IMG/VR virus record: IMGVR_UViG_3300037141_000177
Coordinates: 9,972 to 73,971 of that record
DNA length: 64,000 nucleotides
Direction: 5' to 3' (one strand)
Origin: a virus
Under the pieces are notes generated by a model, which worked only from the letters and a program-made list of their open reading frames with translations, did no database searches and was not told where the DNA came from. The first letter of the stretch is position 1. Each line of letters opens with the position of its first letter. This document shows positions 7,990-48,992 of the stretch, piece by piece. Made by a program: the position numbers and the translations under genes.

Positions 7990-8005
7990 GTCGTGACGCC
8001 AGACT
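7990..8005 (+). promoter_or_regulatory. Putative late promoter motif GTCGTGACGCCAGACT (lysis cassette)
   Basis: Directly after the terminator, upstream of the lysis genes. Confidence 0.65.
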
Positions 8006-8088
8006 CAAATCGTGCGTAAGGCGCACATCGAGGCGGTTGAGGCGGACGTTAAGAAGCTTGGTTAGTGGGTCGGTTCAGGGAGCACTTC

Positions 8089-8781
8089 ATGGATGGTAAA
8101 GACGCCCGTCGCAGCGCCATCGAAGGTCCGGAGTGGTCGCTCGAATCATTGGAAATTTTTCTCACGAAAATATCTAACGAGCGTGATCGAACCTATCAGC
8201 AGCGCTGGGAAGCTTCAGAGAAGGCCACAGTAACGGCGCTGAACGCCGCGAAGGAAGCCGTCGCCGCTGCGCTGCTGGCGCAAAAAGAAGCGGTTACGAC
8301 CGCCTTCACTGCGCAGGAGAAAGCGGTTGCGGCGGCGCTAACGGCGGCAGAGCGTGCGGTATCAAAAGCCGAGACCGCATCAGAAAAACGCTTCGACTCG
8401 ATCAACGAGTTTCAGTCCCAGCTTACCAATCAAGCGACTACGTTTTTGCCTCGGGCTGAATTTGATCGGACCTTGCGAGCCATGTCCGACAAGCTCGACA
8501 TCATGGCCGCAACACTGGCGGATAAAACGGACACCAGTTCCAAGGCTTTAGAGGAAAGGATCCAGTCGTCCGCGCGTGCTCTGGACGCCAAAAGCGACGC
8601 GAACGCGCTGAAAATCGACTCGAACAACAAGGCGTTCGGAGCACGCCTCGATGACTTGCGCACGTTCAAGGATTCGAGTTCCGGCCGCTCGCAGGGACTC
8701 AATGCGGGCTGGTCCTATTTACTCGGACTGGTTGCTTTGATCGGTACGTTGGTGACGATTATCTTGGTGATCAAACGATGA
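8089..8781 (+). CDS. Coiled-coil protein with C-terminal membrane anchor, first gene of the lysis cassette
   Basis: Ala/Glu/Lys heptad repeats, C-terminal hydrophobic helix; GGAG before ATG 8089. Confidence 0.6.
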   Translation: MDGKDARRSAIEGPEWSLESLEIFLTKISNERDRTYQQRWEASEKATVTALNAAKEAVAAALLAQKEAVTTAFTAQEKAVAAALTAAERAVSKAETASEKRFDSINEFQSQLTNQATTFLPRAEFDRTLRAMSDKLDIMAATLADKTDTSSKALEERIQSSARALDAKSDANALKIDSNNKAFGARLDDLRTFKDSSSGRSQGLNAGWSYLLGLVALIGTLVTIILVIKR

Positions 8782-12102: not shown

Positions 12103-12549
12103 TTACTCCGCCGCGGCGATCAGATACTTCTCGCGCTTTTTACCCACCAGCCAAGCCGGAGTATGGCCCATGCCGCTCCAAGTGGCGCCCGTTTTGGGGT
12201 CGAGGTACTTGGCTGGCCTGGTGCCCTTGGTCTTGGCTTTGGGTGCCACTGCTTCGCCGTCAGCCGCCAGACTGGCCGACTCCGAGCCGTTCAGCGCCGG
12301 AGCGTCTGTGGGTGCATCGTGCCCTGCGCCATTCGGCGCCAGGCCGTTCGTTACGATCGGTGCCCCCTGTCTCTTTTTGTACTGCTTCTTGGGCTTCGCA
12401 GGCTCGGCGAGGTCCGCCAGCGTCAGCCCGCGCTCGAGCATGAGCTGCTTCACCTCGTTGACGGATTCTGCGCGCACGCGGGCACGTTCAGCCTCAACTT
12501 TGGCGGTCAGTTTATCTAGTTGTTCTTGCAGTTCTGCGAGCGTTGCCAT
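12103..12549 (-). CDS. hns: Second H-NS family protein
   Basis: MATLAELQEQL N-terminal coil; PAKYLDPKTGATWSGMG.TP.W; start corrected to ATG 12549 (GGAG RBS). Confidence 0.88.
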   Translation of the reverse strand: MATLAELQEQLDKLTAKVEAERARVRAESVNEVKQLMLERGLTLADLAEPAKPKKQYKKRQGAPIVTNGLAPNGAGHDAPTDAPALNGSESASLAADGEAVAPKAKTKGTRPAKYLDPKTGATWSGMGHTPAWLVGKKREKYLIAAAE

Positions 12550-12874
12550 GTAAGTCTCCGGTGGTTGTCGGTACAGCGTGGGTGAAACGATTAAGTGCCT
12601 TAGTGCGGAGTTTTTCTGACGACGAAACGCCAAGCCGCTTTGAAGCGCCGGACCTTCGGATCCTGCTCGAGTTCGTACCGCTCGGTGTCGGTGGGCAGGC
12701 GCAGACATTTTTCGTACAGGTCGTATATCGACAATTGCCCACAGCCGATGCACAGGGAAGCATCGCCGTGCTTCGGAATGCCGCCTTCGAAGTCCGAGTG
12801 CTGGTCGAGTCGTTTCCCGCAGTGAATGCACGTCGTATCCAGCGTGCTGGGGCGCTTGTCGCCGAATTTCAATC

Positions 12875-14128
12875 TCATGCCGCTCGTTGACCTTCACCTA
12901 GCCATTTGTCGAGTGCAACACGGGCGGCGGACATGGAGCCGAGGAGCGGTTCGAACTTGATGTGGGCGGACTTCAATCTATTCCGTACCTCATGCGAGAC
13001 GTACTCGCCCATCAACAGCACCATGTCGCACTTCTCGACACGTCCGTAGCCGCCCTTGGGTCCGCTGCCGTCCTGGTCGCCACCGAATACAAATTCGATC
13101 CGGCCGGCGTAGTCCCGCTCGAGCTGCTTATCCTGCTGGTGGACCAATCCGAACACGCCCACGAGAGGTTTGCGGTCCCGTGGAGGCGCGGACACTGACT
13201 TGAGGGTGGGCCGGGCCGCTGGCACGAGTGACTCCACGGAGCCCGATATCTCCTCGCGCAGTGCATCCACGAGCGGACGAGCGATAGCTTTGACCAGCTT
13301 GCGCGCGATCAGGCCAAGCAGTTCCTCGATCGTCACGCGTTCGCGAAACTCTGAGAGGGCTTCCGTGCGTGCCTCGTATGCGGCGAGATCCGCCAGTTCG
13401 ATCGCTGTTTTCTCCAACTCCTCGCGCTCGTGGACATGATTGAGCTGTGCCGTCTGCTCAGCGGCCACCTCGTTGCGGTGCCGCTCTTGTGCCTCGCGTT
13501 CGAGGACCACCTCATTCGCCACCTCGACCAGCAAAGGCTCAAGCCACGGCTTCTCTGTGGCGTAGCCGGCGAATTTCCGTTGACGGTTATCTGGCAAGTT
13601 GTATTGCATGGAACGCCGCACGCATTCGCTTTTCGCCAAGTCAGGGAAATCGTTTTGCAGCTTGAGAAAACCTTTCGCGATCGTGCGCCGCTCGGCATCG
13701 TTCCAGCGAACCAGCTTGGCACCTTTCGCCATGCCCCGGTGTTTCTTGGGGGTGGGCGCGTCAGTTACTGGCGCGTCGGTCACTATCTGGGTTTCAACTT
13801 CTGTTTCAGCGACGGGAGCTGATTCGGCTGTGGCAGATTCTTGCGGCATAGGCGTCTCCGCGACGTGTGCGTTTATTCGATCCCGTTCTTCGGCGATGGC
13901 TTCCCACAGTGGAATAACCCACTGGCTATGTGCCATATCCTTTATTTCCTTGCGCTGGCCTGCTGGCAGCATCAGCACGGCTTTGCGCAGGGCGTCGACG
14001 CGCGACAGACTATTATTCTCGTGCATCAAGCGCAGCGATTCCCGCGCCATTAATTCTTTTTCCGCTGCTGACCATCGAATATCTTTCTTAGTCGTGCTGC
14101 TGTTCTTACGTGCGTAGGGGTGCGCCAT
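12875..14128 (-). CDS. Protein with a duplicated helical domain and DUF2325-like C-terminus
   Basis: Two RW..AE...A..L repeats; C-terminal CD.VL....YVSH. Confidence 0.5.
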   Translation of the reverse strand: MAHPYARKNSSTTKKDIRWSAAEKELMARESLRLMHENNSLSRVDALRKAVLMLPAGQRKEIKDMAHSQWVIPLWEAIAEERDRINAHVAETPMPQESATAESAPVAETEVETQIVTDAPVTDAPTPKKHRGMAKGAKLVRWNDAERRTIAKGFLKLQNDFPDLAKSECVRRSMQYNLPDNRQRKFAGYATEKPWLEPLLVEVANEVVLEREAQERHRNEVAAEQTAQLNHVHEREELEKTAIELADLAAYEARTEALSEFRERVTIEELLGLIARKLVKAIARPLVDALREEISGSVESLVPAARPTLKSVSAPPRDRKPLVGVFGLVHQQDKQLERDYAGRIEFVFGGDQDGSGPKGGYGRVEKCDMVLLMGEYVSHEVRNRLKSAHIKFEPLLGSMSAARVALDKWLGEGQRAA

Positions 14129-14227: not shown

Positions 14228-14899
14228 TCATGCGTGGCGAGCCTTGCCGCCTTCCCATATCGCGACAAAATCTGGCGAGCCATTCAGCGCCCTCGAGTAC
14301 AGCCAACTCGGGTAATCAAGCGCCGGTTTTTTGCTCCATATCTCTTTGCCGCGATGGACCTGCGTGTTTCCAACGAACATATATTGCTCGCAGTTTTTAA
14401 GGACGTCCGACTCGTCCACGCCGAACTCGTTTCCACCGGCTTCGTGTCGGCGCTGGTCGTACTTGTGGGTCACCCATGCGGCCACGACGACCGCAGGCTT
14501 GTACTTGCGCACGGCATCCCGCGCTGACAGCTTCTCGACGTTCTCACCATACTTCACCGTCGCTTGGTCGATAGCGCCATAGTAGGCGCGCACCAGATCG
14601 GTGTCCTGCATCCGGTTGTCTGTCGCGCGAATGCCCAACGCTGCAGCGATCACGCCGTTACCTGCGCCTATCTCAATCGCATCACGGTCCCCGATCGCTT
14701 CTTTAAGAAACTCAATCAATTCGATTGTGGGTAAGCAATAGACGCCGTGCCGCACGCAGAAAACGCTTCGTTCCTTTGCGCTAACGCCTGCGTAGTACGC
14801 CGCTGGCATGACTTTCACTTGCCCATCGTCGCCAAGCACGTCGGGTGCGATGTCGCGAACGCCTGTCGGGTCTATCGTATGGATGCCAGTTTGGGTCAT
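14228..14899 (-). CDS. Putative class I SAM-dependent methyltransferase-like protein
   Basis: AIEIGAGNG glycine loop. Confidence 0.55.
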   Translation of the reverse strand: MTQTGIHTIDPTGVRDIAPDVLGDDGQVKVMPAAYYAGVSAKERSVFCVRHGVYCLPTIELIEFLKEAIGDRDAIEIGAGNGVIAAALGIRATDNRMQDTDLVRAYYGAIDQATVKYGENVEKLSARDAVRKYKPAVVVAAWVTHKYDQRRHEAGGNEFGVDESDVLKNCEQYMFVGNTQVHRGKEIWSKKPALDYPSWLYSRALNGSPDFVAIWEGGKARHA

Positions 14900-16086: not shown

Positions 16087-16485
16087 TTAGTGCGCCAGTG
16101 GTTGCACAACGTTCACCGCCTGGCCGTGCACCTGAAGTTCCTCGAGCCAGCATGTGCATGCCCTCAAACCGCCGACAAAGCCCAGCGCCTCTGCGACCAT
16201 CCACACGGCATGTTCGTTTGGCACCCGGCCTTCCTTGCCGACGCTCATGCTCATATGTGCGCAGGTTCCCGCTGGGTGTCCCTTCTCGATGCTGTAGGTC
16301 ACCATAAAATTGGTGGGTATGTGCACGGTCTGCGCTGTCATCTGGATCATGTGCGCGGCTTTGCCTGCCCGGTGCTTGATGGCTTCCATCAACACCTTCA
16401 CATCCACGGGCCGTGCGCTCGCGCGCTCGCGGAGCTCGGTCAGCATCGCGATCTCGGCTGGGCCGATCATCAGTAGCGTGCTCAT
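16087..16485 (-). CDS. Hypothetical phage protein
   Basis: VTYSIE..HP.G.C.HMS.SV...P motif; start ATG 16485. Confidence 0.5.
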   Translation of the reverse strand: MSTLLMIGPAEIAMLTELRERASARPVDVKVLMEAIKHRAGKAAHMIQMTAQTVHIPTNFMVTYSIEKGHPAGTCAHMSMSVGKEGRVPNEHAVWMVAEALGFVGGLRACTCWLEELQVHGQAVNVVQPLAH

Positions 16486-16735
16486 GGTGCGCCCGGTTTG
16501 ATGGGGTTGCGTGCTATCCATGCCTGCGCGGCCATCTTCGCCGCCAAGCGGCGCGTGACGCCCTCCGGATCGGGCGATAAGCTGCCGCCGCAGCAGGCAC
16601 ACTGTCCGTTCAGATGATTCAAGCCCCCCACGACCGCGCGCAGGCCACACTCCCAATGCAGCGGCGCATTCGAGATGGGGGCCAGCGGCTCTCCCGGCAG
16701 GATCGGTTCGTGACAGTGCTGGCAGGTCACGGCGC

Positions 16736-16969
16736 TCATGGCCAGACCCTCATGAACGCGGCGGTGCGCCGGTACGTCTTGGCCGACGTGTCGTATTTCA
16801 GGTTGTCGGGCGCGATCGCGATATAGGCGTTCAGGTCGAGACTCGCCTGTTGCGTGGACAGCCCGAAATAGCCGCTGATCACGTCTCGATTGATGGTGCC
16901 GTACTGCGCCATCAGAAAGTCGATGAAGTGCAGGCGAAAGGTCTGGCCGAAGAGGTTGTTTCTCGTCAT
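16736..16969 (-). CDS. Stand-alone winged HTH resembling the N-terminal domain of CapW/BrxR WYL regulators
   Basis: RL.FIDF...G.INR..I...FGLS.QQAS.DL..Y...AP.NL.YD.S.K.Y; 77 aa, no WYL domain. Confidence 0.7.
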   Translation of the reverse strand: MTRNNLFGQTFRLHFIDFLMAQYGTINRDVISGYFGLSTQQASLDLNAYIAIAPDNLKYDTSAKTYRRTAAFMRVWP

Positions 16970-17294
16970 GGCGCTTCGCCGCGGCGAATCCTGGCGTTGC
17001 ACGCCTCTATTTCTACCACCAGTGCTTCGAGCCTGACGCGAACCCGATTCCACTCGCGCCAGTACCGACCCACCGTCCGGGTCAGAGAAGTCGCTGCCAA
17101 AAAACAACCGGCGAGGCAGATGCAGTCAATTGCGAGAAGAAGCGTTTCGCCGCGGGCTGCGTTGAAGTGGGCGGCGAATAGATTCCACCCCACCATCACG
17201 TAACCACCGAACAAGGCGACCCACAGCTTCCAGTCCTTCAGCGTCGGCGGGAACCGCGGAAGCCGTTCAGGGACTGGAAATTGCGGCGGTGTGC

Positions 17295-17825
17295 TCACGA
17301 TGCCGGTTCGATCAGGACGGCGAGCTGTGACGCGAGAATGGTGCACTCACTGCGAACGTAGTCGATATCGCGGTACGTCTCGGGGTTCCACAGCGAATCG
17401 GTTATATGCCCGCGCGCCGTCGGCACGAACCCGATCTCGCGCATGGTCGCGTGCATGGCTGGCATTAGGTCGAACGCGTGGCCACAGTCGAAGCCGAACC
17501 AGTAGACGTCATCGGGCTCACCGGGTTCGGGAATGTGGCAGATGCCCTCGCCTGTCTCGGGGTTGAATCCCGGGTCGCACTTATCCGCGAAGGTTATCCC
17601 CCCGTGCACCGACACCGGAATTTCAGAGAAGTCGTGTATTCCGTAATGCGGGTGGCCGGAGCCAACGCCCACGTATCCGCACCAGCTTCCGGTTGTCTTG
17701 GCGCGATGGATCATGCACGGCAAGCCGGTAGCCGGGTCGGTCCACTGCACCTTGTCCGGCTCGCTGTTCCACGGGCCTTCGCCCCAAGTCGTTTTATCGA
17801 GAAACTTCCATTGCATCTCTTTCAT
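17295..17825 (-). CDS. Conserved phage protein
   Basis: WCGYVGV..HP.YG, VHGGITF, WFGFDC.H..D motifs. Confidence 0.65.
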   Translation of the reverse strand: MKEMQWKFLDKTTWGEGPWNSEPDKVQWTDPATGLPCMIHRAKTTGSWCGYVGVGSGHPHYGIHDFSEIPVSVHGGITFADKCDPGFNPETGEGICHIPEPGEPDDVYWFGFDCGHAFDLMPAMHATMREIGFVPTARGHITDSLWNPETYRDIDYVRSECTILASQLAVLIEPAS

Positions 17826-19168: not shown

Positions 19169-20491
19169 TCATGCTTTCTCCTGCTTCAACGAAAACGCGA
19201 GCAAGTCCTCTGCGGTCGGCTCGCCCCACAGTTTTGCGGCGAGCCACTCGGCGAACGCCGTTTTCGCCAGTTTCGATTTGACGACTCGGTTTGTAATCCC
19301 GTCGCGGACTTGTTTCGGCAGGTCCATCGCAAGCCACTCGTCTTTCAGGGCCGTCGCTTCGTCAGCCCCGACTTCTTTCCAGTAGCCGCTGGCTTCGGTT
19401 ATTTGATGGGCCTTGTATGCCGCCTTCAGGCTGGTCATCTCCGCCTCGGGGTCTGCTAGGTCGAGCGCTGCTTGCTGTGCCGCCTTAACCGCGATTTTCG
19501 GCTCTTTGTACTTGCTTCGAAGCATGACCTTGAAATAGGCCGCTTGGCTCACCAACGGTTTCCCCGACGTACTCACGGCCTTCGCGTCGGTGGCCTTCAG
19601 TGCTGCACGAATGACTTTCCTCTCGTGCTTTTGGTATATCGCACGCGCTTCGTCTTGCGGGATGTCCATCGCGACCATTCGTCGAATCAATTCAACGTCC
19701 AAGGGCGAATTGATCTCGCCGAATCCGCTATTTTCGCTGACGGGCTTGGGCACGATTTTGAACTGGATATCGCTCACCCGAATCCCGTTTTTGTGCTCCA
19801 CCAACTCGACCGTAAACGTTGCCCTGTCCTGACTGTTTATCTCAGAAATACTGGCCTTCAGAATGTCGCGTTTGAAGTATTTGTACTCGCTGTATGTGTT
19901 CTTCGCGTCGCCGGTCAGAACGGGCACCCACCACGTCCAGTCCGCTCGGTTCGTGACCCCTGTTCCGTCTTTCTGATTTCGACTGTTCGTTTCGTAGCGC
20001 GAGCAAATCTCAAAAAGGGAAACCGACGCGCCCGAGGTGAGCGACGTATGGATTTGCAGAGACAGGTGCGTGAAGGCTTTGTAATCGAACAAGCGGGATT
20101 GAATTTTTTCCGGAAACATCCACTCGAGCGTTTTTGCCTTGCCACGCGGCCCGTCGTTTAGCTCGGCTTGCGCCAGCATTGCGGTAACGCCCCACCCCGC
20201 CACTTTCCCCGGTGTGTTCCAGATAACTGCGATGCCTGCGGTCATCAATTCAAGGTGGTGCTTGATCACGTGTGTCGCGCCGCTGCTGAATTCGATGTAC
20301 TCCATCACTTCGGATAAGGGACGGCTGTACTTGGCTTGTGGGCCGTCCTGTTGAGCGAAATAAACCAGCACGTTGAAGAGGCGCCGCACCACAAGCGTGA
20401 CTCGACCGCGCTGCGGGTGAATGGCGATTGTCTCGTTCATGCGCCGGACGAAATCTTCGTCGTTCGGTGTCGAAATGTCTGTGTTTTGCAT
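19169..20491 (-). CDS. repA: Plasmid replication initiator (Rep_3/RepB family)
   Basis: RRLFNVL, SLFEIC.RY, YSEYKYFKRDILK.SI.EIN motifs; adjacent to iterons. Confidence 0.88.
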   Translation of the reverse strand: MQNTDISTPNDEDFVRRMNETIAIHPQRGRVTLVVRRLFNVLVYFAQQDGPQAKYSRPLSEVMEYIEFSSGATHVIKHHLELMTAGIAVIWNTPGKVAGWGVTAMLAQAELNDGPRGKAKTLEWMFPEKIQSRLFDYKAFTHLSLQIHTSLTSGASVSLFEICSRYETNSRNQKDGTGVTNRADWTWWVPVLTGDAKNTYSEYKYFKRDILKASISEINSQDRATFTVELVEHKNGIRVSDIQFKIVPKPVSENSGFGEINSPLDVELIRRMVAMDIPQDEARAIYQKHERKVIRAALKATDAKAVSTSGKPLVSQAAYFKVMLRSKYKEPKIAVKAAQQAALDLADPEAEMTSLKAAYKAHQITEASGYWKEVGADEATALKDEWLAMDLPKQVRDGITNRVVKSKLAKTAFAEWLAAKLWGEPTAEDLLAFSLKQEKA

Positions 20492-20556
20492 GGGCCACAA
20501 CATATCCGAGCCGGTGAGACAGATCAACAATTAATTTTCACCTGTTTTTTCGGCAA

Positions 20557-20676
20557 AGTTCCCTATATCCACTCACCTAGTTCCCTAAATACGCTCACCT
20601 GTTGGTTCAAAGTTCCCTAAATTCACTCACCTAGTTCCCTAAATTCACTCACCTAGTTCCCTAAATACGCTCACCT
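20557..20676. repeat. Five 22-bp iterons (AGTTCCCTAAATwCrCTCACCT), plasmid oriV
   Basis: Copies at 20557, 20579, 20611, 20633 and 20655, directly upstream of the rep gene. Confidence 0.92.
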
Positions 20677-20720
20677 GTTGGTGCCTCAAACCCTTGCTGG
20701 GCGGGCTTCTCCGTTTTCTC

Positions 20721-20940: not shown

Positions 20941-21291
20941 TCAGCGCGCGATTCCGTACTTCTTTTTGAGGCGTGCCAACTCGGTCCTCGCTCCGTCGAC
21001 CAGCACTTCCGTCATCGGAATGTCGGTTTGCTTCGTGAAATCCCGGAGTTCGTCGTAAAAATCAAGAGGCACGCGGAGGTTCATGGTCGCCTTCGGTTGG
21101 CGGCGTCGCGGCAATACAGCCCCTTGGTGCGGTTTTGCGGTATCCGCCTGTTCGGATGGGTCCACCACCCGGAACGAAGGCGCTGGCGGCATCTCTGAGG
21201 CCGCTGGTGCCGTTTCGGGTGCGGATAGGTTCTCGCTGGCGTCCTCGATTGAGGGGGGATCGCCGAGTCCTTTGGTTTTGAAAGTGACCAT
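20941..21291 (-). CDS. Partition adaptor (ParG-like ribbon-helix-helix)
   Basis: Follows parA; disordered N-terminus, C-terminal TMNLRVP..Y.EL..F RHH. Confidence 0.7.
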   Translation of the reverse strand: MVTFKTKGLGDPPSIEDASENLSAPETAPAASEMPPAPSFRVVDPSEQADTAKPHQGAVLPRRRQPKATMNLRVPLDFYDELRDFTKQTDIPMTEVLVDGARTELARLKKKYGIAR

Positions 21292-21296
21292 TTTTG

Positions 21297-21920
21297 TTAC
21301 TCCGCTGCGTTGACTAAGGCTTGGATCAGGGCGTCTGCTCGTGAATTCAGCGCCTTGTACCGGGTTTCTGTGACCGCATACCCCTCGTTTTGCGCCGTTC
21401 GGTAGCTCGGGCGCTCGACCATGCAGCCGTCCAGCACGGCGTATCCGGCTTTGGCGATATAGGCGCGGGCTTGGGCCTCCTCCGCGTCGGTGCCTATGCG
21501 GCTCAGGGCAAAAGCGAGTTTCTCGATAGGCACGCCCGCCTTCACCAGCGCGTGAAACTCCCGGACCGCTGGGCGCAGATCGTCAAGGGACGCTCCGCTC
21601 GGCTGGACGACGAGGTTCGCCGCCATCGCGATCGCGAGCGTCGCCGCGCTCGTGCGCGCTGGCGCATCGATCACGAGGATGTCGTACTGCCCAGCAATCG
21701 CGAGCGCCTGTGCTGCCGTTTTGAACGATTCGGCGGAGATGGCCGGTTGGATGCCGGCGTCGTTCCTGGTGATCTGCCAGAACACGCTTGTCGATTGCTG
21801 GGTGTCCAGGTCGGCGAGTTTTACGCGTAGGCCGGCTGCTGCACCTTCCCTTGCTAATGCCCTGGCGAGTGTGCTTTTGCCTACCCCGCCCTTCTGTGAG
21901 ACGAACGCGACAATGGTCAC
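21297..21920 (-). CDS. parA: Type Ib ParA ATPase
   Basis: SQKGGVGKST deviant Walker A, DLDTQ, VIDAP. Confidence 0.92.
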   Translation of the reverse strand: MTIVAFVSQKGGVGKSTLARALAREGAAAGLRVKLADLDTQQSTSVFWQITRNDAGIQPAISAESFKTAAQALAIAGQYDILVIDAPARTSAATLAIAMAANLVVQPSGASLDDLRPAVREFHALVKAGVPIEKLAFALSRIGTDAEEAQARAYIAKAGYAVLDGCMVERPSYRTAQNEGYAVTETRYKALNSRADALIQALVNAAE

Positions 21921-21929
21921 TTTTGTAAA

Positions 21930-22340
21930 TCCTCATGTATTGCAGTGTGGCAACGTTAGTGTATTTGTGCGTTTGCTGCAATGTTTCTGTATGGCCGTGC
22001 GTATATACAGTTGTAAAGACGTGCGTACGTACGGCGTTACGTGCAGATAGCTGTGTGTATGGCCGGGTTGTCGTCTCCGGGCAACCACCTAGAGTCCAAG
22101 GTGGTCGAACGCGCCGGTTTATTGATGTGCTGCCGGAGTGGTGTCTGTAAGCGCACCCGTCCGCGCATCTGCACGTCAGTGCGTACGCATGTAAAGACGT
22201 ACGTGTATACGTCTGTAAAGACACGTGGATATGTGCGTGGAAGCGGTGAAACAAAGCAGGATGTAAGGAAGTAATGCTGTGCGCATGGGTGTAATGGCAG
22301 AAGCACTGACTTCTTTATACAAAGCCGTCTATACGTGCAT
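21930..22340. repeat. Candidate centromere (parC) / par promoter region with short degenerate repeats
   Basis: Apparently non-coding and rich in alternating purine-pyrimidine; TGTAAAGAC at 22012, 22190 and 22214. Confidence 0.45.
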
Positions 22341-27694: not shown

Positions 27695-28450
27695 TTAAAA
27701 TCCGCCTCTGCAGCTGGATCGTTTAACCCGGCCCACGATGTTGACGCCCGCAGCTTGCTGCGCGGTGAGAACCATCTCGGGGTAGCGCGAATTTTCACAG
27801 ATGATCCGAATGCCTTTGTTCACGAATGGGAGCACTCGACGCACGCAAAGTTGAGGATCTAATTCGTCGAGAACTATGACGAAAATCCCGCCGTTCAACG
27901 GTATCTCTTTATCTCCTAAGTCCGCCACCACCACGTCTGACGCGTACATACGAGGCTCCATCGTATCGTCTAGTAGTTCGAAGCATCCAATATTATCGGG
28001 TTTGCTATCCAAGTCATTCACCATGAACCCGCCGAAGAGGTGAGTCGTGCGTTCTTCCACACTGTATGTAATGCCGCCTCTTGAGGCATTTGGCCTCGCG
28101 GTGATTATTCCAATGGCCACGTTCTCGTCCTTTGGTATCTCGTTGAGACACTTAAACTCGCTGAGATGTCGGGTGTGGCGTCCGACGTCTGGATCACCAG
28201 TATTACCCCGTATTCCGTTATGTGCCGGTATATCCGAAAACAATTGCGCGAGCGTTATGTCTAGTGCCTTCGCGATCGCAATCATGGAGTCGTTGGTCAG
28301 GCTTTGGTGGCCGTTCTCGATTTTTGAAAGGCTCCCGGTGTTGATCCCGGTTCGTAGGTTCATCTCTCGGAGCCGAAGGCCACGCTGCTCGCGATGCGCT
28401 TTTATTCGTTTGCCAATTTCGGCGTTTTCTACATTCTCGGCTTCGCTCAC
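27695..28450 (-). CDS. CI-like repressor (XRE HTH plus S24-like domain)
   Basis: IGKRIK..R..RGL, LSKIENG; C-terminal D.MEP..D.VV, RII.EN..YP; GTG 28450 with AAGGAG (ATG 28531 also possible). Confidence 0.85.
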   Translation of the reverse strand: MSEAENVENAEIGKRIKAHREQRGLRLREMNLRTGINTGSLSKIENGHQSLTNDSMIAIAKALDITLAQLFSDIPAHNGIRGNTGDPDVGRHTRHLSEFKCLNEIPKDENVAIGIITARPNASRGGITYSVEERTTHLFGGFMVNDLDSKPDNIGCFELLDDTMEPRMYASDVVVADLGDKEIPLNGGIFVIVLDELDPQLCVRRVLPFVNKGIRIICENSRYPEMVLTAQQAAGVNIVGRVKRSSCRGGF

Positions 28451-28551
28451 GACGCTCGCTCCTTGAGGTGTCGCTAGGTTTTTCCCCGATGCTCGTGCTC
28501 TTGTTAGACGGGTATTACGAGCATCATCCATAAACGTATCATTGTTAATAT

Positions 28552-28569
28552 TTTGCTTCACGCGCACAA
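28552..28569. promoter_or_regulatory. Putative operator between the cI-like and cro-like genes
   Basis: Reverse complement is TTGTGCGCGTGAAGCAAA. Confidence 0.55.
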
Positions 28570-28603
28570 TTCCCTTCGTAAACTTTCTTACATGTGACAT
28601 AAA

Positions 28604-28894
28604 ATGAATCCGTCCGACCAGAAGACCGGCGCCTCTCCGCTGCGAAAAGTCCGGCACCTGCGTGGCCTGACGCTGCAGGAAGTCGGCCGGCGCATGAACA
28701 TGGACTCGGGCAGTATTTCGCGCATCGAAGTCGGGGGTCAATGGCCCCCTAAAGACCTACTGGTGCGGCTTACAGCGTTTTACGCGCCTGACCTGCTCGA
28801 GGTGCACATCCTGTTTCCGGAGCGGTACATGAGCTTCGTTGCTCCGCCTCTGGCCGTTAAGAAAGTAATTAAAACTGTAGACAAATCCAAATAA
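28604..28894 (+). CDS. Cro-like HTH regulator
   Basis: SPLRKVR..RGLTL.EV, ISRIE.G; divergent from the repressor. Confidence 0.85.
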   Translation: MNPSDQKTGASPLRKVRHLRGLTLQEVGRRMNMDSGSISRIEVGGQWPPKDLLVRLTAFYAPDLLEVHILFPERYMSFVAPPLAVKKVIKTVDKSK

Positions 28895-28927
28895 AAGGCG
28901 TCAACGTCGTTATTCACAATACGCATC

Positions 28928-28945
28928 TTATGCGTTTAACGCAAA
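28928..28945. promoter_or_regulatory. Putative operator TTATGCGTTTAACGCAAA
   Basis: Palindromic match upstream of the replication gene. Confidence 0.55.
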
Positions 28946-29101
28946 GGGTAAACGTTCATCACGCGAAAATATTCGCGTTTGCACCTAAAACTACGGTGCG
29001 GCCCGGGCCGCATCCTTCCCTGCCAGGCGTAGGCAGGCAGCGCCACACGGAGTCGATCCTCGCCTTTGTGAACTAGAAATCCGACGACCAAGCTGCGCGC
29101 C

Positions 29102-29950
29102 ATGAATCACTCTTTTGACATCGATCACGCTGCTCGCTTCGGGACCAACGAAGCGATCCTGATCGAGTGCATCGCCTTCTGGGTCCGCACGAACAAGGCC
29201 AATGGAACGGGCGAGTTCGAAGGCCGGACCTGGACCTACAACTCCGTGCGCGCCTATGCGGTGATGTTCCCCTACATGTCCGCCGGTCAGGTGCGCCGCG
29301 CGCTCGAGCACCTCGTCGAGCTCAACGTGCTCATGGTCGGCGAGTTCAACGCCAAAGCGGGCGACCGGACCAAGTCCTACGCGTTCGTCGACGACCGGCC
29401 TTTTCAGCCTGAAGTCGACCATTTGTCGCTGGCAGCAAATGGTCCCGAAACGCCCGAAACCGACCATTTGTCATTGGCGACAAATGGTCCCGAAACACCC
29501 GAAACTGACCATTTGTCACCGGCAGCAAATGGGGCCGACCATTTGTCACTGGTGCCAACTCCATTTGTCACCAGTGACAAGTCACTAATAAGTACAGTTG
29601 TAAACACAGTTAACCCGGCGGTGAAGCCCAAAAAAGCCCCGCCTGCGGCGCCTGATCTCGCGCCTGGTGAGCCGCTCTGGTCGAGGACCGACGAGTCGAT
29701 CATGGCGCGCGGAGTCGAGCTGGGCGTCGCGCCGCTTGTGGGCGAATCGATGACGGCGTTCAAAAACCGGATTCAGGCAAAAACCGACCCGGTGAAAGCA
29801 AAACCCGCTCGCGCAAACGTTGCCGTCTCCGCTTCTGTGCAATCCCGGGCTCCGTTGCCCCGGCCAGCCGTACCGACGCCCGAGGTAATCGCGGCCAGAC
29901 GCCGAGCGCTTGACCACGCGCTGCACGGTCAGCAGGGGAGACTGCATTGA
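29102..29950 (+). CDS. Phage replication initiator-like wHTH protein
   Basis: HSFD..A..G..EAIL..I.FW..N, GRTWTYNS, FPY.S..Q.RR.L; internal DNA repeats. Confidence 0.75.
   Translation: MNHSFDIDHAARFGTNEAILIECIAFWVRTNKANGTGEFEGRTWTYNSVRAYAVMFPYMSAGQVRRALEHLVELNVLMVGEFNAKAGDRTKSYAFVDDRPFQPEVDHLSLAANGPETPETDHLSLATNGPETPETDHLSPAANGADHLSLVPTPFVTSDKSLISTVVNTVNPAVKPKKAPPAAPDLAPGEPLWSRTDESIMARGVELGVAPLVGESMTAFKNRIQAKTDPVKAKPARANVAVSASVQSRAPLPRPAVPTPEVIAARRRALDHALHGQQGRLH
29417..29580. repeat. Intragenic palindromic iterons (GACCATTTG-N10-CAAATGG), candidate lytic origin
   Basis: Units at 29417, 29462 and 29507 (45-bp period), plus partial copies at 29537 and 29561. Confidence 0.75.
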
Positions 29951-43388: not shown

Positions 43389-43988
43389 ATGGCTCGGCCA
43401 TCGATTAGTAAAGAACAGTGGACGGTTGCTCGCGCAATTTGGGAGAGCGATCCGGTCGTGACATTCGCGGAGATCGCCGAGGACTTTGGCGTCACGCGTC
43501 AGGCCGTCCAACTTCACGCCCGACGCCACGGTTGGGTGAAGCGCCTCGATAAGCAGACCGTTTCGGATCTGGCTCACGCTGCGGCGGATTCAAAACTTAC
43601 AGGATCGCCGGCGGACGGATCCAAGCCGGCGGGGTCTGTTGTCGCGGACACGCTTGAAAAACGCATCACGCGCGCTTTGCCTGATCTGCCGCTCGGTGCG
43701 TCGCCTGAAGACGCGCAGAAGGCTGCTGAAGCCGCCGCGATCGATAGACGGGCGGAGGTGTTGGGTACGCACCGGAAGGAGCTACTGGCCGCTCGCACGC
43801 TTCTGTATGGCGCGATCAAATCGAAGGTGCTCGACGAGGCCAAGCAGGTAAAGATCGCGGCCGAGGCGATGAAGATCATCCAGGACGCCGAACGAAAAGC
43901 CTGGGGTCTGGATTCCGATGAAAAGGGCGGTCGTCCGCAGGTCCAGGTGATCGTGCATCGACGCGCGGGTAAGCCGAATGGACACTAA
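43389..43988 (+). CDS. Terminase small subunit-like HTH protein
   Basis: W...R..WE, IA..FGV.RQAV...A...GW; C-terminal IQ..ERKAWGLD. Confidence 0.6.
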   Translation: MARPSISKEQWTVARAIWESDPVVTFAEIAEDFGVTRQAVQLHARRHGWVKRLDKQTVSDLAHAAADSKLTGSPADGSKPAGSVVADTLEKRITRALPDLPLGASPEDAQKAAEAAAIDRRAEVLGTHRKELLAARTLLYGAIKSKVLDEAKQVKIAAEAMKIIQDAERKAWGLDSDEKGGRPQVQVIVHRRAGKPNGH

Positions 43989-45243
43989 TCGGGTCTTGTT
44001 CGGGGATTGTCGCGCGTCGCTGCGCCTGATGGCCGCTGAAGGTATGCAGGTGCAAACGTGCGTCACGTCGCCTCCGTACTACGGCTTGCGTGACTATGGC
44101 GTGGATGGCCAGCTCGGCCTCGAAGAAACGCCCGACGAGTACGTTGCCGCGCTGGTGGACGTGTTCCGCTGCGTGCGCGACGTGCTGGCCGACGACGGCA
44201 CGCTCTGGCTGAACATCGGCGACAGCTACGCGGCGAACCGCGGCTATCAGGTCGCCTCCACGCTTATGAATGGCAAGGCCACGAACGAAGCGCAGGCCGC
44301 TGGCGGTCGTGGCATGAAGGCCGCTGACTATGGGGTGAAGCCGAAGGACCTGATCGGTATCCCGTGGATGGTGGCGTTCGCGCTGCGCGCTGACGGCTGG
44401 TATCTGCGCTCGGACATCATCTGGTCGAAGGGCAACCCCATGCCTGAGAGCGTCACGGACCGGCCGACGAAAAGCCACGAGTACTTGTTTCTGCTCGCAA
44501 AGTCCGAGCGCTACTACTACGACCACGAAGCGGTGAAGGAGCCCGCCGTGAGCGATCACGCGTCGGGTAACGGCTTCAAGCGCGACGCGCGCTTGTCCTA
44601 CAAAGACGCCAATGGCGCGCGCGGCAACGATGAACAGTGGACGGATATTGGCGGTAGACGTAATCGCCGGTCGGTGTGGAGCGTCAATACGAAGCCGTAC
44701 AAGGGTGCCCACTTCGCCACGTTCCCGCCGGGACTGGTCGAGCCTTGCATCCTCGCGGGCACAAGTGCGGAGGGGCATTGCCCGGTCTGCAGTGCGCGTT
44801 GGCAACGTGTCACAGACCGTCAGGCGACCGGCTGGAATGGGAGCAGATATGGCGAGGCGGCGCAGGCGGCGACCGGCGGGGCGATCAGCGGCGGCACTGC
44901 GCGCAGCACGCTCGGGTCGAGTAACGGCAGGCTCACCGCCCAATACCTCACGACCGGCTGGCAACCGACCTGCGCATGCGGTGCCGATTCGGTGCCCGAC
45001 GTGGTGCTCGATCCGTTTATGGGCAGCGGCACGACTGCGGCTGTTGCTGTCGACCTTCGTCGGGGCTTCCTCGGCTGCGAGCTGAACCCCGAATACGAAC
45101 ATCTTCAAACCGAGCGGATAACGCGCGCGCGTGCGGCGCTCGCCGAGCGGCTTGCTGCCGCCTACGCCGCTACCGCGCAGGGCGATCTGTTGAACCCAAA
45201 TTCGTCTCACACCGTAGTTCAATTCGAAGGAGCAAAGGCATGA
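43978..45243 (+). CDS. DNA N4-cytosine/N6-adenine methyltransferase (beta class)
   Basis: TSPPY, IIW.K.NPMPES, HFA.FP, VLDPF.GSGTT. Confidence 0.92.
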   Translation: MDTNRVLFGDCRASLRLMAAEGMQVQTCVTSPPYYGLRDYGVDGQLGLEETPDEYVAALVDVFRCVRDVLADDGTLWLNIGDSYAANRGYQVASTLMNGKATNEAQAAGGRGMKAADYGVKPKDLIGIPWMVAFALRADGWYLRSDIIWSKGNPMPESVTDRPTKSHEYLFLLAKSERYYYDHEAVKEPAVSDHASGNGFKRDARLSYKDANGARGNDEQWTDIGGRRNRRSVWSVNTKPYKGAHFATFPPGLVEPCILAGTSAEGHCPVCSARWQRVTDRQATGWNGSRYGEAAQAATGGAISGGTARSTLGSSNGRLTAQYLTTGWQPTCACGADSVPDVVLDPFMGSGTTAAVAVDLRRGFLGCELNPEYEHLQTERITRARAALAERLAAAYAATAQGDLLNPNSSHTVVQFEGAKA

Positions 45244-45911: not shown

Positions 45912-47345
45912 GTGACTTTTAGCGCGATCACCTTCGGCTCAGTGTGTTCGGGCATTGAAGCGGCGAGTGTGGCGTGGGTTCCGCTTGGCTGGCGCGCGGT
46001 GTGGTTCGCGGAGATAGACGCGTTCCCGTCCGCGGTGCTTGCGCATCGGCATCCGTCGGTGCGGAACCTGGGGGATATGACGCTGCTGGTGGCACGCGTG
46101 CAGTCGGGGGAGATTGAGGCGCCCGACGTCCTGGTGGGCGGCACACCGTGTCAGGCGTTCTCGCTGGCGGGGCTTCGTGCTGGTTTGAATGATCCACGCG
46201 GTCAGCTTGTGCTGCGGTTTTTGGAATTGGCAAATGCAATTGACGCAGCTCGACTTGTTCTCGGAAAGCCCGCGTGTGTCGTCGTCTGGGAGAACGTCTA
46301 CGGCGTGCTCAGCGACAAGACCAACGCCTTCGGATTCTTACTTGGTGGGCTGGCCGGCGAAGATGTTCCACTTGAGCCGCCAAGGGACGCCCGTGGCCTG
46401 AGAAAGCCTTGGTCGCACGCTGGTGCTGTGTATGGACCCCAAAGAGCAGCGGCATGGCGGCTCCTCGACGCCCAATATTTCAGAGTGGCACAACGACGCC
46501 GCCGTTGTTTCCTTGTGGGCAGTGCTCGAGCGGGGTTCGATCCAGCGAAGGTACTTTTTGACTTCGAAGGCGTGCGCCGGGATTCTCCGCCGAGCCGAGA
46601 TGCGGGGGAAAACGTTACCGGCACTCTTAGCGCGCGCACTTCAGCAGGTGGCGGACTTGGGACCGACTTTGAACTAGCCGGTGGCCTGCAGGTGTGCTCG
46701 CCGGTCGTGTGCCTGGCGCACGGGCAGGGAGGGGCCGAGGTGTCGGAGGACCGGTCGCCGACGCTCACCTGCAACCACGAGGCACCGATCGCCGTGTATG
46801 CGTTCCAGCCGCGCATCGCGCGCAATGGTCGGGGCGATATGGGCGAGCTCGTCAATGCGTTGACGGCCACTGCTGGCGAGACGGGCAAGGGTGATGCTGC
46901 GCCGTGCGTCGCACTCGCGTTCAAGGCTTCGCACTTCACGCGCGGTAAGGATGGCGCTCCGTCTGAGGTCTGTCCGCCGCTGTCGGCCGACGCCGACAAG
47001 GGCGATCAGGACACGCTGGTGTGTGCGCCCACGGGGATCGCCTTCGACGCCCGTCAAGACCCGGTTTCAAACGATCACGTCGCAGGCGCGCTCGGCTCAT
47101 CCAGCCCGCAATCGCAGGCCGTGTGCGTCGCCGGAGGCATGGCGGTGCGTCGTCTCACGCCGGTCGAGTGCGAGCGGCTTCAGGGATTCGCGGACGGCTA
47201 CACAAACGTTCCGTACCGCGGCAAGCCTGCTGCGGACGGTCCGAGATACAAGGCGCTTGGCAATTCTATGGCCGTGCCGTGCATGGCCTTTCTTGGGCGC
47301 CGCATCGCGGTCGCTATTGGTGAGCTTATTCGGGAGCACGCATGA
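45912..47345 (+). CDS. DNA C5-cytosine methyltransferase
   Basis: SVCSGI, GGTPCQAFS, WENV, QRRRR.F, RRLTP.ECERLQGF, RYKALGNS. Confidence 0.93.
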   Translation: MTFSAITFGSVCSGIEAASVAWVPLGWRAVWFAEIDAFPSAVLAHRHPSVRNLGDMTLLVARVQSGEIEAPDVLVGGTPCQAFSLAGLRAGLNDPRGQLVLRFLELANAIDAARLVLGKPACVVVWENVYGVLSDKTNAFGFLLGGLAGEDVPLEPPRDARGLRKPWSHAGAVYGPQRAAAWRLLDAQYFRVAQRRRRCFLVGSARAGFDPAKVLFDFEGVRRDSPPSRDAGENVTGTLSARTSAGGGLGTDFELAGGLQVCSPVVCLAHGQGGAEVSEDRSPTLTCNHEAPIAVYAFQPRIARNGRGDMGELVNALTATAGETGKGDAAPCVALAFKASHFTRGKDGAPSEVCPPLSADADKGDQDTLVCAPTGIAFDARQDPVSNDHVAGALGSSSPQSQAVCVAGGMAVRRLTPVECERLQGFADGYTNVPYRGKPAADGPRYKALGNSMAVPCMAFLGRRIAVAIGELIREHA

Positions 47346-47624: not shown

Positions 47625-48992
47625 ATGGCTGATATCTCGATGCCGACCGCGCTGGTGATGCGTAACGTCGCGGACCTGTTGCCGTATGCGAGGAATGCCA
47701 GAACGCATTCGGATGAGCAGCTGGCGCAGATCGTCGCGTCGATGACCGAGTTTGGCTTCACGAACCCGATCCTCGTCTCCGGTGACGGGATCCTCGCGGG
47801 GCACGGTCGGATTCTAGCGGCCGAGAAGCTCGGGCTGACGGTGGTGCCGACGATCGACCTGTCGCATCTGTCCGAGACGCAGCGGCAGGCGTACGTGCTC
47901 ACTGACAACAAGATCGCGCTCAATGCGGGATGGGATCTCGACATGCTGCGCGTTGAGCTGGAGGAGCTGGAAGCGAAGGGGTTTGATCTGTCGATCACGG
48001 GCTTCGGCGCGGACGAGCTCGAGGAGCTCCTGCATCCGGATCTGGAAGCGCCTGGTGGTGATCCGGACGAAGTGCCGGAGACGCCCACGGTCGCGCACTC
48101 GGTGCTTGGCGACGTGTGGATTTGTGGCGCGCACAAGGTCATGGTTGGAGATGCGCTGTCGGTCGATGCCTGGGACGCGCTGATGGGCACGGAGAAGGCG
48201 GACGTGGTGTGGACGGACCCGCCGTACAACGTTGATTACGAGTCGAAGCTGGCCGGGAAAATCAAGAACGACAAGATGGGCGACGGTGCCTTTCATGAGT
48301 TCCTGCTGGGTGCCTTTGTGGCGCTGTTCACGGTCATGAAGTCGGGTGCGGCGATCTATATCGCGCATGCCGATACGGAGGGCTACAACTTCCGCAGCGC
48401 CTTCCTGAAGGCCGGGTTGAAGCTGTCGGGTTGCCTCATCTGGAAGAAGAACACGCTGGTCCTCGGGCGTAGCCCGTACCAGTGGATCCACGAGCCGATT
48501 CTGTACGGATGGAAGCCGGGAAAAGCGCACCGATGGTTCGGCGGCCGCAAGCAAACGACGGTCACGGATTTAGGCGATGCGTCGCCGTTCGAACTGCAGC
48601 CCGACGGTCGCTGGGTGGTGCGCGTCGGTGAGGAGACGCTTGTCGTGTCCGGCGATGCGCTGGTGGAGCGCGTTGAGACATCGCTGATCTATCACGACAA
48701 GCCTGCGCGCTCGGCACTTCATCCCACGACGAAACCGGTCGGACTTGTCACTCGTCTTTTGAAGAATTCCGCGCGTCGCAACGACATTGTGGTCGATGCC
48801 TTTGGCGGTTCCGGCACGACCTTGATCGGCTCTGAAATGGTCGGCATGTGCGCGCGCCTGATGGAGCTTGACCCTCGCTTTGTCGACGTGACCTGCGCTC
48901 GTTACCTTGCCTACACGGGCCGCGTGCCGGTGAGTGCGGTGACCGGTCTGGAATTCCCGCGCGGCGTGCTCGAGCGGCTTAACGCCAAGTAA
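47625..48992 (+). CDS. ParB-like domain fused to an N6-adenine methyltransferase
   Basis: PY.RNAR.H, FGFTNP, AGHGR; TDPPYNV, HPT.KP, D.FGGSGTT. Confidence 0.9.
   Translation: MADISMPTALVMRNVADLLPYARNARTHSDEQLAQIVASMTEFGFTNPILVSGDGILAGHGRILAAEKLGLTVVPTIDLSHLSETQRQAYVLTDNKIALNAGWDLDMLRVELEELEAKGFDLSITGFGADELEELLHPDLEAPGGDPDEVPETPTVAHSVLGDVWICGAHKVMVGDALSVDAWDALMGTEKADVVWTDPPYNVDYESKLAGKIKNDKMGDGAFHEFLLGAFVALFTVMKSGAAIYIAHADTEGYNFRSAFLKAGLKLSGCLIWKKNTLVLGRSPYQWIHEPILYGWKPGKAHRWFGGRKQTTVTDLGDASPFELQPDGRWVVRVGEETLVVSGDALVERVETSLIYHDKPARSALHPTTKPVGLVTRLLKNSARRNDIVVDAFGGSGTTLIGSEMVGMCARLMELDPRFVDVTCARYLAYTGRVPVSAVTGLEFPRGVLERLNAK

Follow-up and report, generated by a model that had tools for sequence, protein, structure and literature searches.

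A stand-alone, sensor-less CapW/BrxR-type winged helix in a temperate phage-plasmid and a mostly viral protein family, with a possible role in repressing host defense operons

Background

WYL-domain repressors, including CapW, BrxR and their relatives, control many bacterial defense systems, and CapW and BrxR in particular reportedly repress CBASS and BREX loci, with ligand sensing placed in the WYL domain. CapW is released by the single-stranded DNA made after DNA damage, and CBASS induction that depends on CapW helps to protect against induction of a lambda prophage (PMC11662680). In the laboratory, this induction was reportedly dispensable for CBASS protection against lytic infection (PMC9122588). 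A preprint describes survivors as overwhelming phage counter-defenses through WYL-dependent BREX induction, and the parallel WYL repressors of V. cholerae as free of cross-talk (bioRxiv 10.1101/2025.11.13.688357).

Here, we describe P0001, a 77-residue protein encoded in a 64,000-nucleotide stretch of viral DNA (hereafter, the window), and the family of small proteins to which it belongs. Literature searches on phage-encoded or stand-alone BrxR/CapW winged helices returned no description of such proteins. The P0001 family is a stand-alone form of a known regulator, with a function that we infer from comparative analysis.

Methods

The window comprises bases 9972–73971 of a 73,971-bp IMG/VR metagenomic record. 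To collect relatives of P0001, 1.84 billion representatives were searched exhaustively with phmmer, which yielded 552 relatives at E <= 1e-3; the best 150 of these were used for family analysis, giving 152 rows including the query and P0002, with clusters formed at 50% identity. A word-index protein search returned one short relative only, whereas the exhaustive search exposed the family. Bacterial genomes, one per species, were scanned using a 4-sequence alignment as the query. The AlphaFold2 model of P0001 was built with 29 family members as input.

Results

A 77-residue gene inside a tightly packed operon

The gene and its immediate neighbors are as follows.

16736..16969, minus strand: stand-alone CapW/BrxR-type winged-helix gene, 77 aa, P0001 (PDB sequence matches, fold, clade, and PF26109 WHD_BrxR in Pfam 38.1)
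16966..17346, minus strand: upstream ORF, 126 aa, no Pfam or PHROG match
16482..16739, minus strand: downstream Cys-rich ORF, 85 aa, weak DUF2175 match only

Re-reading of the ORF on the minus strand places its ATG at 16969 and its stop codon at 16736–16738, so that the coordinates and the length of 77 aa given in the preliminary description are exact. A 123-aa version starting from TTG was rejected as an over-extension of the same frame. The P0001 start codon shares an ATGA with the stop of the upstream ORF, and the P0001 stop codon shares another with the start of the downstream ORF; these overlaps on both sides place the gene inside a tightly packed operon, as one member of a chain of translationally coupled small genes. 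Judged from this layout, a position among the early genes is plausible. The Cys-rich downstream ORF is the sole neighbor in common with other loci of the family (L004, L023, L028, L032). Elsewhere in the region, a 223-aa ORF (14228–14899, minus strand) with no Pfam or PHROG match carries a glycine-rich EIGAGNG motif that recalls SAM-dependent methyltransferases.

P0001 is the winged helix of CapW/BrxR cut off before the linker

In a phmmer search against PDB sequences, P0001 matched CapW and BrxR chains (7tb5, 4e-15; 7tb6, 6e-10; 9c5g, 7e-8; 7qfz, 1.5e-4; 7t8k, 6.5e-4), the single exception being a RecC at the chance-level E-value of 0.98, and the matched part of the CapW/BrxR chains was confined to the N-terminal ~70–90 residues. 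The AlphaFold2 model (pLDDT 94.4) consists of three helices and a beta-hairpin wing and aligns with Pa CapW at TMq 0.97 and an rmsd of 0.9 A in Foldseek, where all 15 hits with E < 1e-3 were CapW/BrxR chains (TMq 0.81–0.97). The wHTH pattern of WYL regulators noted in the preliminary description is thus borne out by a sequence search and a fold comparison that are both specific to the CapW/BrxR winged helix. The precomputed Pfam label of P0001 is PF26109, named WHD_BrxR in the ESM Atlas output; Pfam and PHROG scans of P0001 produced chance-level matches only, because the PF26109 model was absent from the Pfam set scanned.

P0001 ends at residue 77, 4–7 residues past the wing and, as first proposed, before any WYL domain. 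Domain scans detected neither WYL, WCX/BrxR_CTD nor a linker in P0001, and neither WYL nor WCX domains in the adjacent ORFs, which rules out a split gene with the WYL domain encoded next door. In Rl CapW, the winged helix spans residues 1–70 and the linker begins at residue 71 (PMC11662680), so that P0001 ends where the linker would begin. P0001 is confirmed as a real and recurrent sensor-less variant of the CapW/BrxR winged helix.

An old stand-alone clade with a common stop position

Among the best 150 of the 552 relatives, 43 cluster representatives with full domain coverage end exactly at the last residue of P0001, 30 proteins are full-length (283–344 aa), and 72 are of intermediate length and are probably mostly fragments. 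The full-length relatives extend 200–230 residues beyond the end of P0001. Members of the stand-alone clade consist of 70–86 aa and end 4–7 residues past the wing at a common stop position; the C-terminal extension is zero in the 43 cluster representatives and, among the 51 viral loci described below, in most. One branch of the maximum likelihood domain tree (SH-aLRT 95) splits the 43 stand-alone from the 30 full-length proteins, with P0001 on the stand-alone side; one state change is needed on this tree, compared to about 23 with shuffled labels. The stand-alone family is old, mostly viral, and of a single origin.

The carrier is a temperate phage-plasmid

The following features of the window characterize the genome that carries P0001.

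12103-12897, minus strand: H-NS-like protein (Histone_HNS C-terminal domain, 2.2e-8, and an N-terminal domain)
19169..20530, minus strand: Rep3-type replication initiator, upstream of the small-gene block (Rep3_N, 1.4e-8; Rep3_C, 3.8e-7)
20557..20690, no strand: 22-bp iterons, five or six copies, preceding rep (repeat analysis)
20941..21291, minus strand: small ORF between the iterons and parA
21297..21920, minus strand: ParA partition ATPase (phrog_164, 1.2e-31)
21988-22220: CGTA-rich direct and inverted repeats upstream of parA
27695..28741, minus strand: CI/LexA-like repressor, HTH_3 and Peptidase_S24 (domain match), with the true start probably internal
43978..45243, 45912..47345 and 47625..48992, plus strand: three consecutive DNA methyltransferases

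The window also encodes tail-fiber and baseplate proteins, as well as a PD-(D/E)XK nuclease, RecT, an SbcC-like protein and a RecA-dependent nuclease. The presence of Rep3, iterons, ParA, and the repeats upstream of parA in a tailed-phage contig identifies a phage-plasmid, and the S24 repressor identifies a temperate phage with an SOS-type repressor. By this gene content, the carrier is a temperate phage-plasmid that is probably SOS-inducible. The P0001 gene is on the same strand as rep, downstream of it, amid small genes with no assigned function.

The three methyltransferases, the last of which carries a fused ParB-like N-terminal domain, probably protect the element from restriction by self-methylation. 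Translation of the H-NS-like ORF probably begins internally, near MATLAELQ. At four other loci (L004, L012, L030, L043), comparable H-NS-like ORFs lie no more than a few kb from the stand-alone winged helix, and the H-NS-like gene could represent a second 'silencing' function in the same block.

Stand-alone copies are enriched in viruses

Scanning IMG/VR identified 54 loci, of which 51 are stand-alone and 3 full-length, the former on contigs of 5–315 kb, some of them jumbo-sized. In bacterial species genomes, 4 of the 28 loci are stand-alone, and one of these four contigs is itself an IMG/VR record. The ESM Atlas shows the same enrichment, with WHD_BrxR clusters of 76–77 aa that are 77–83% viral and a cluster of ~296 aa that is 100% bacterial. 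Homologues with the same stop thus recur in phages, at these 51 of 54 loci and among the 43 cluster representatives, and the common stop, the single branch in the tree, and the viral recurrence rule out a one-off truncation or a broken gene.

The sole homologue in GenBank phages is CPT_Sonora_088 (gp088; QYW02189.1) of Stenotrophomonas phage Sonora, a 75-aa "hypothetical protein"; megablast of the 10-kb neighborhood of P0001 against GenBank phages retrieved nothing related. Of four genomes with a stand-alone copy, too small a sample to carry weight, two contain a detectable full-length homologue. In one, a Frateuria MAG, the recognition helices of the stand-alone and full-length proteins are near-identical (STPQASLDL and SIPQASLDL, respectively). 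A CapW-like winged helix of Rhizorhabdus histidinilytica (L084, match 8001–8189) is found in a 157-aa open frame that continues 37 residues past the domain; it could represent another kind of truncation or a gene in decay, and it falls outside the pattern of the stand-alone clade.

In the window, ParA, Rep3, and the iterons precede P0001 in the same orientation, in a block that also contains the H-NS-like gene. This placement is compatible with a housekeeping factor of the plasmid or prophage state, for example, a nucleoid-associated or partition/replication accessory DNA-binding protein unrelated to defense. However, most of the homologous loci are not beside rep or par genes, and the family member in Sonora lies in a 63.8-kb linear siphophage, at the right end among small hypothetical genes, so that we consider such a function improbable.

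The DNA-binding face is retained and the helix-1/helix-2 face is remodeled

In Sm CapW, the substitutions R32A and S42A/Q45A/S47A abolish DNA binding (PMC9122588); the S/Q/S triad touches DNA in BrxR as well, and SRQQ has been named as the base-contact motif of Acinetobacter BrxR (PMC9122588; PMC9122589). Residues R32, S42, Q45 and S47 of Sm CapW align to R28, S38, Q41 and S43 of P0001, all four being present. Across the stand-alone clade, R28 is kept in 98% of the proteins, S38 in 84%, Q41 in 79%, and S43 in 67% (with T in a further 26%), compared to 97–100% at the same four positions in the full-length proteins. Key recognition residues are altered in 20–30% of the stand-alone members, so that at least part of the family must read other DNA; in one subgroup (P0023, P0041, P0045 and P0073), they are replaced by G-x-A-T-A-T. 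By these residue frequencies, the clade has retained the DNA-binding face in a somewhat freer form.

A second set of positions (7, 14, 19, 22, 23, 30 and 74) differs systematically between the clades, with W, E, R, W, E, D and P in the full-length proteins and Y, R, L, Q/H, Y, A/V and R in the stand-alone ones, which also possess an aromatic residue at position 76. W22, conserved in 97% of the full-length proteins, is lost in the stand-alone clade. P0001 itself carries the clade residues L19, Y23, R74 and W76, and H14 where the clade mostly has R.

Homodimer prediction for P0001 gave an ipSAE of 0.46, compared to 0.14 for the best control, and passed a calibration mark attained by 20 of 30 proteins whose structures are same-chain pairs and by 1 of 23 with single-chain structures; at least 85% of the contacts agree between runs, and the partner pLDDT is at least 88. 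The predicted contact is small (13 contacts) and involves residues 15, 18, 22–23, 25, 29–30 and 33–34, thus taking in the clade-specific positions 22, 23 and 30, with 14 and 19 adjoining. This is a hint of a P0001 homodimer, and the pass may reflect memory of, or likeness to, the solved CapW/BrxR dimers rather than real pairing.

The same face bears on the possibility that P0001 acts on the host repressor itself, the free winged helix docking on the WYL/linker surface of host CapW/BrxR or forming mixed pairs and thereby altering sensing or DNA binding. A docking surface is conceivable, given that the WYL domain of each protomer in a full-length dimer packs on its partner's winged helix (PMC9122588, PMC11662680). 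Yet the positions 14, 19, 22 and 23 in helix 1 and 30 in helix 2 are systematically replaced in the clade, including the loss of W22, and the DNA-contact residues, which such a role would not need to conserve, are conserved. Moreover, if the host repressor were kept off its DNA, defense would be de-repressed, to the detriment of the phage. We regard action at the protein level as very improbable. The dominant-negative partner suggested in the preliminary description meets a further difficulty, in that P0001 lacks the linker, WYL and WCX, the domains that join the protomers of full-length dimers (PMC9122588, PMC11662680); this version is less likely than that of a non-inducible repressor.

A portable gene with no recurrent partner

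About half of the stand-alone copies overlap an upstream ORF by ATGA or GTGA. All-against-all clustering of the ORFs within ±4 kb at 56 loci revealed no recurrent partner, and a PHROG tally of 150 flanking ORFs revealed neither a recurrent family (best, 3 of 150) nor a known anti-defense gene. By these neighborhoods, the gene moves on its own, as a portable cassette. In some of the phages, tandem small ORFs with an 'SRN(Q/A)REGRY(x)G' motif lie within 1.5 kb of the stand-alone winged helix, and a separate small family with the motif 'WTVY(D/E)HP.D.P..FVAR.W' also occurs within this distance (L005, L006, L008, L009, L011, L030 and L031 for the two families).

Candidate operators are found at full-length capW-like genes

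Perfect palindromes of the form CGYRWW-N3-8-WWYRCG were found 11 times in 300 kb of full-length loci, compared to 1.6 ± 1.3 in shuffled sequences, and 8 of the 11, mostly with a 5-bp spacer, lie 76–115 bp upstream of a capW-like gene in several genera. The candidate operator class can be written as CG(T/C)(A/G)TA-N5-TA(T/C)(G/A)CG, and its positions in the loci are as follows.

L058:7889-7907, candidate operator
L089:1425-1443, candidate operator
L065:1128-1146, candidate operator
L068 and L070:7886-7904, candidate operators
L078:7889-7907, candidate operator
L052:5913-5931, candidate operator
L066:7891-7911, candidate operator

In Stenotrophomonas nematodicola (L058), a type III CBASS operon (cyclase, HORMA, TRIP13, and TIR effector) is divergent from capW, and the palindrome is located in the intergenic region common to both.

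The stand-alone loci show no enrichment of this class, which was derived from full-length relatives and might not suit a dimer with another geometry: within ±6 kb at the 51 phage loci (555 kb), 3 palindromes were found, with 2.4 ± 1.5 expected. The strict CapW-type palindrome is absent from the 64-kb window, and a looser class is represented there by one site (28961–28978), not above chance given an expectation of 0.37. This site is in the immunity region and adjoins the S24 repressor gene, which makes the S24 repressor the more obvious binder. A cis-operator near the P0001 gene was accordingly rejected, and the CGTA-rich repeats at 21988–22220 were rejected as CapW operators because their pattern and spacing do not fit. 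A scan for sigma-70 promoters and terminators between 11.5 and 24 kb performed no better than on shuffled sequences.

The immunity region (27695–29600) contains two ACGC-type palindromes, at 28961–28978 (7-nt arms) and 28922–28936, and a cluster of GACAAATGGTC-type palindromes at 29462–29489 (11-nt arms), 29526–29545 and 29565–29580.

Small phage HTH proteins of known function mostly regulate phage genes, and P0001 could likewise be a Cro- or Aca-like winged-helix repressor or activator of the phage's own promoters at other places in the genome, with sites built differently from CapW operators and no more than a common ancestry with CapW/BrxR. The clade is old and self-contained in the maximum likelihood tree, and the recognition positions are more variable than in the full-length proteins (S38, 84 vs 100%; Q41, 79 vs 97%; S43, 67 vs 97%), a looseness in keeping with sites particular to each phage lineage. 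Palindrome-rich regions are available in the window (28922–28978, 29462–29580 and 21988–22220), including one CapW-like palindrome at 28961–28978. Regulators, however, normally travel with their operators, whereas here the neighbors vary and the gene is usually operon-internal with overlapping codons; CapW-type palindromes are not enriched within ±6 kb at the 51 phage loci, and the sole site in the window is not above chance (1 vs 0.37) and adjoins the S24 repressor. In addition, occurrence in very different phages, on contigs of 5–315 kb that include jumbo-sized ones, is the pattern of an accessory gene rather than of core circuitry. We consider regulation of the phage's own genes unlikely, although with an appreciable chance of being correct.

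Discussion

For a lone cassette that is found in unrelated phages, keeps its DNA-contact residues and lacks a cis site, the simplest explanation is that the sites lie in trans and already exist in many hosts. The CapW/BrxR operators of host defense loci are such sites, and in several genera operators of the CapW type are conserved ahead of full-length capW genes. An anti-defense function is thus plausible, and we put forward, tentatively but as a serious possibility, that P0001 is a sensor-less CapW/BrxR derivative that holds host defense operons repressed. Of the two versions considered, the non-inducible repressor fits the evidence from the DNA-contact residues, the predicted homodimer, the lack of a cis operator, the host operators, and the SOS-inducible carrier.

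Under this scenario, two copies of P0001 would pair through the helix-1/helix-2 face, and the pair would bind palindromic operators of the CapW/BrxR type. Lacking the linker, WYL and WCX, P0001 could not be released by single-stranded DNA, so that P0001 expressed from the phage-plasmid would keep CapW/BrxR-controlled operons (CBASS, BREX, and others) repressed. The effect would be greatest when DNA damage induces the phage and would otherwise de-repress the defense operons. DNA damage presumably both induces the carrier and raises CBASS expression in hosts with CapW, and a repressor that cannot be released fits such a carrier.

A broader version, in which P0001 is a portable single-gene super-repressor that blocks induction by DNA damage or infection at CapW/BrxR operators in several defense systems at once, is possible but more doubtful. 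If CapW-dependent induction is dispensable against lytic infection and parallel WYL repressors do not cross-talk, as reported (PMC9122588; bioRxiv 10.1101/2025.11.13.688357), the gain from a generic super-repressor would be limited. Several points argue against an anti-defense function in general: repression of transcription leaves the defense proteins already made in place, the tree shows one old origin of the clade rather than repeated captures from current hosts, and known anti-defense genes do not recur beside the gene among the 150 flanking ORFs.

If repression of host defense by P0001 is correct, it would represent counter-defense at the level of transcription, through mimicry of a regulator rather than inhibition of an effector, and several defense systems with common operator types might be silenced together. 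The viral family corresponds exactly to the DNA-binding module without the sensor, which makes it an obvious candidate for a counter-measure. The small size of the protein, the large family, a cultured phage (Sonora), and published CapW reporter systems make the idea directly testable. If P0001 regulates phage genes instead, the family would still be a case of a defense-regulator domain taken over by viruses.

Comparison with known systems

Like P0001, the Aca proteins are small phage-encoded HTH proteins (in the case of Aca, repressors) that belong to accessory regions. Aca genes form short operons with acr genes behind a promoter whose inverted repeats are bound by Aca, whereas P0001 is operon-internal, with neither a conserved partner nor a nearby palindrome, and no sequence relation between P0001 and Aca proteins was seen.

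CPT_Sonora_088 is 48.5% identical to P0001 over residues 12–77, ends at the same stop position, and is likewise embedded by overlapping start and stop codons in a run of small hypothetical genes. Unlike the carrier of P0001, Sonora is a siphophage of the Mesyanzhinovviridae with a linear genome of 63.8 kb; the two have no neighbors in common, and gp088 is at the right end.

BrxR (7qfz, 7t8k/7t8l) is further off in sequence, at 28–35% identity, and P0001 lacks the same domains relative to BrxR as it does relative to CapW. The fold is shared (TMq 0.84–0.88), as is the Pfam domain WHD_BrxR (PF26109), and the S-x-Q-Q motif of P0001 matches the SRQQ base-contact motif of Acinetobacter BrxR (PMC9122589).

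CapW (7tb5, 7tb6, 9c5g) differs from P0001 in possessing the linker, WYL and WCX, and P0001 consequently has neither single-stranded DNA sensing nor the dimer scaffold; P0001 also has replacements of W7, E14, R19, W22, E23 and D30 of the full-length proteins and, unlike CapW, no cis operator. In contrast to the CapW/BrxR family as a whole, P0001 is encoded in a phage operon rather than beside a defense operon, with phage and plasmid genes and unassigned ORFs as neighbors. The winged helices themselves, nevertheless, are 43–50% identical over ~70 residues and superimpose with an rmsd of 0.5–0.9 A, and the recognition helix of P0001, S-T-Q-Q-A-S-L-D, fits the motif of the full-length proteins, S-x-[PQ]-Q-A-S-x-D.
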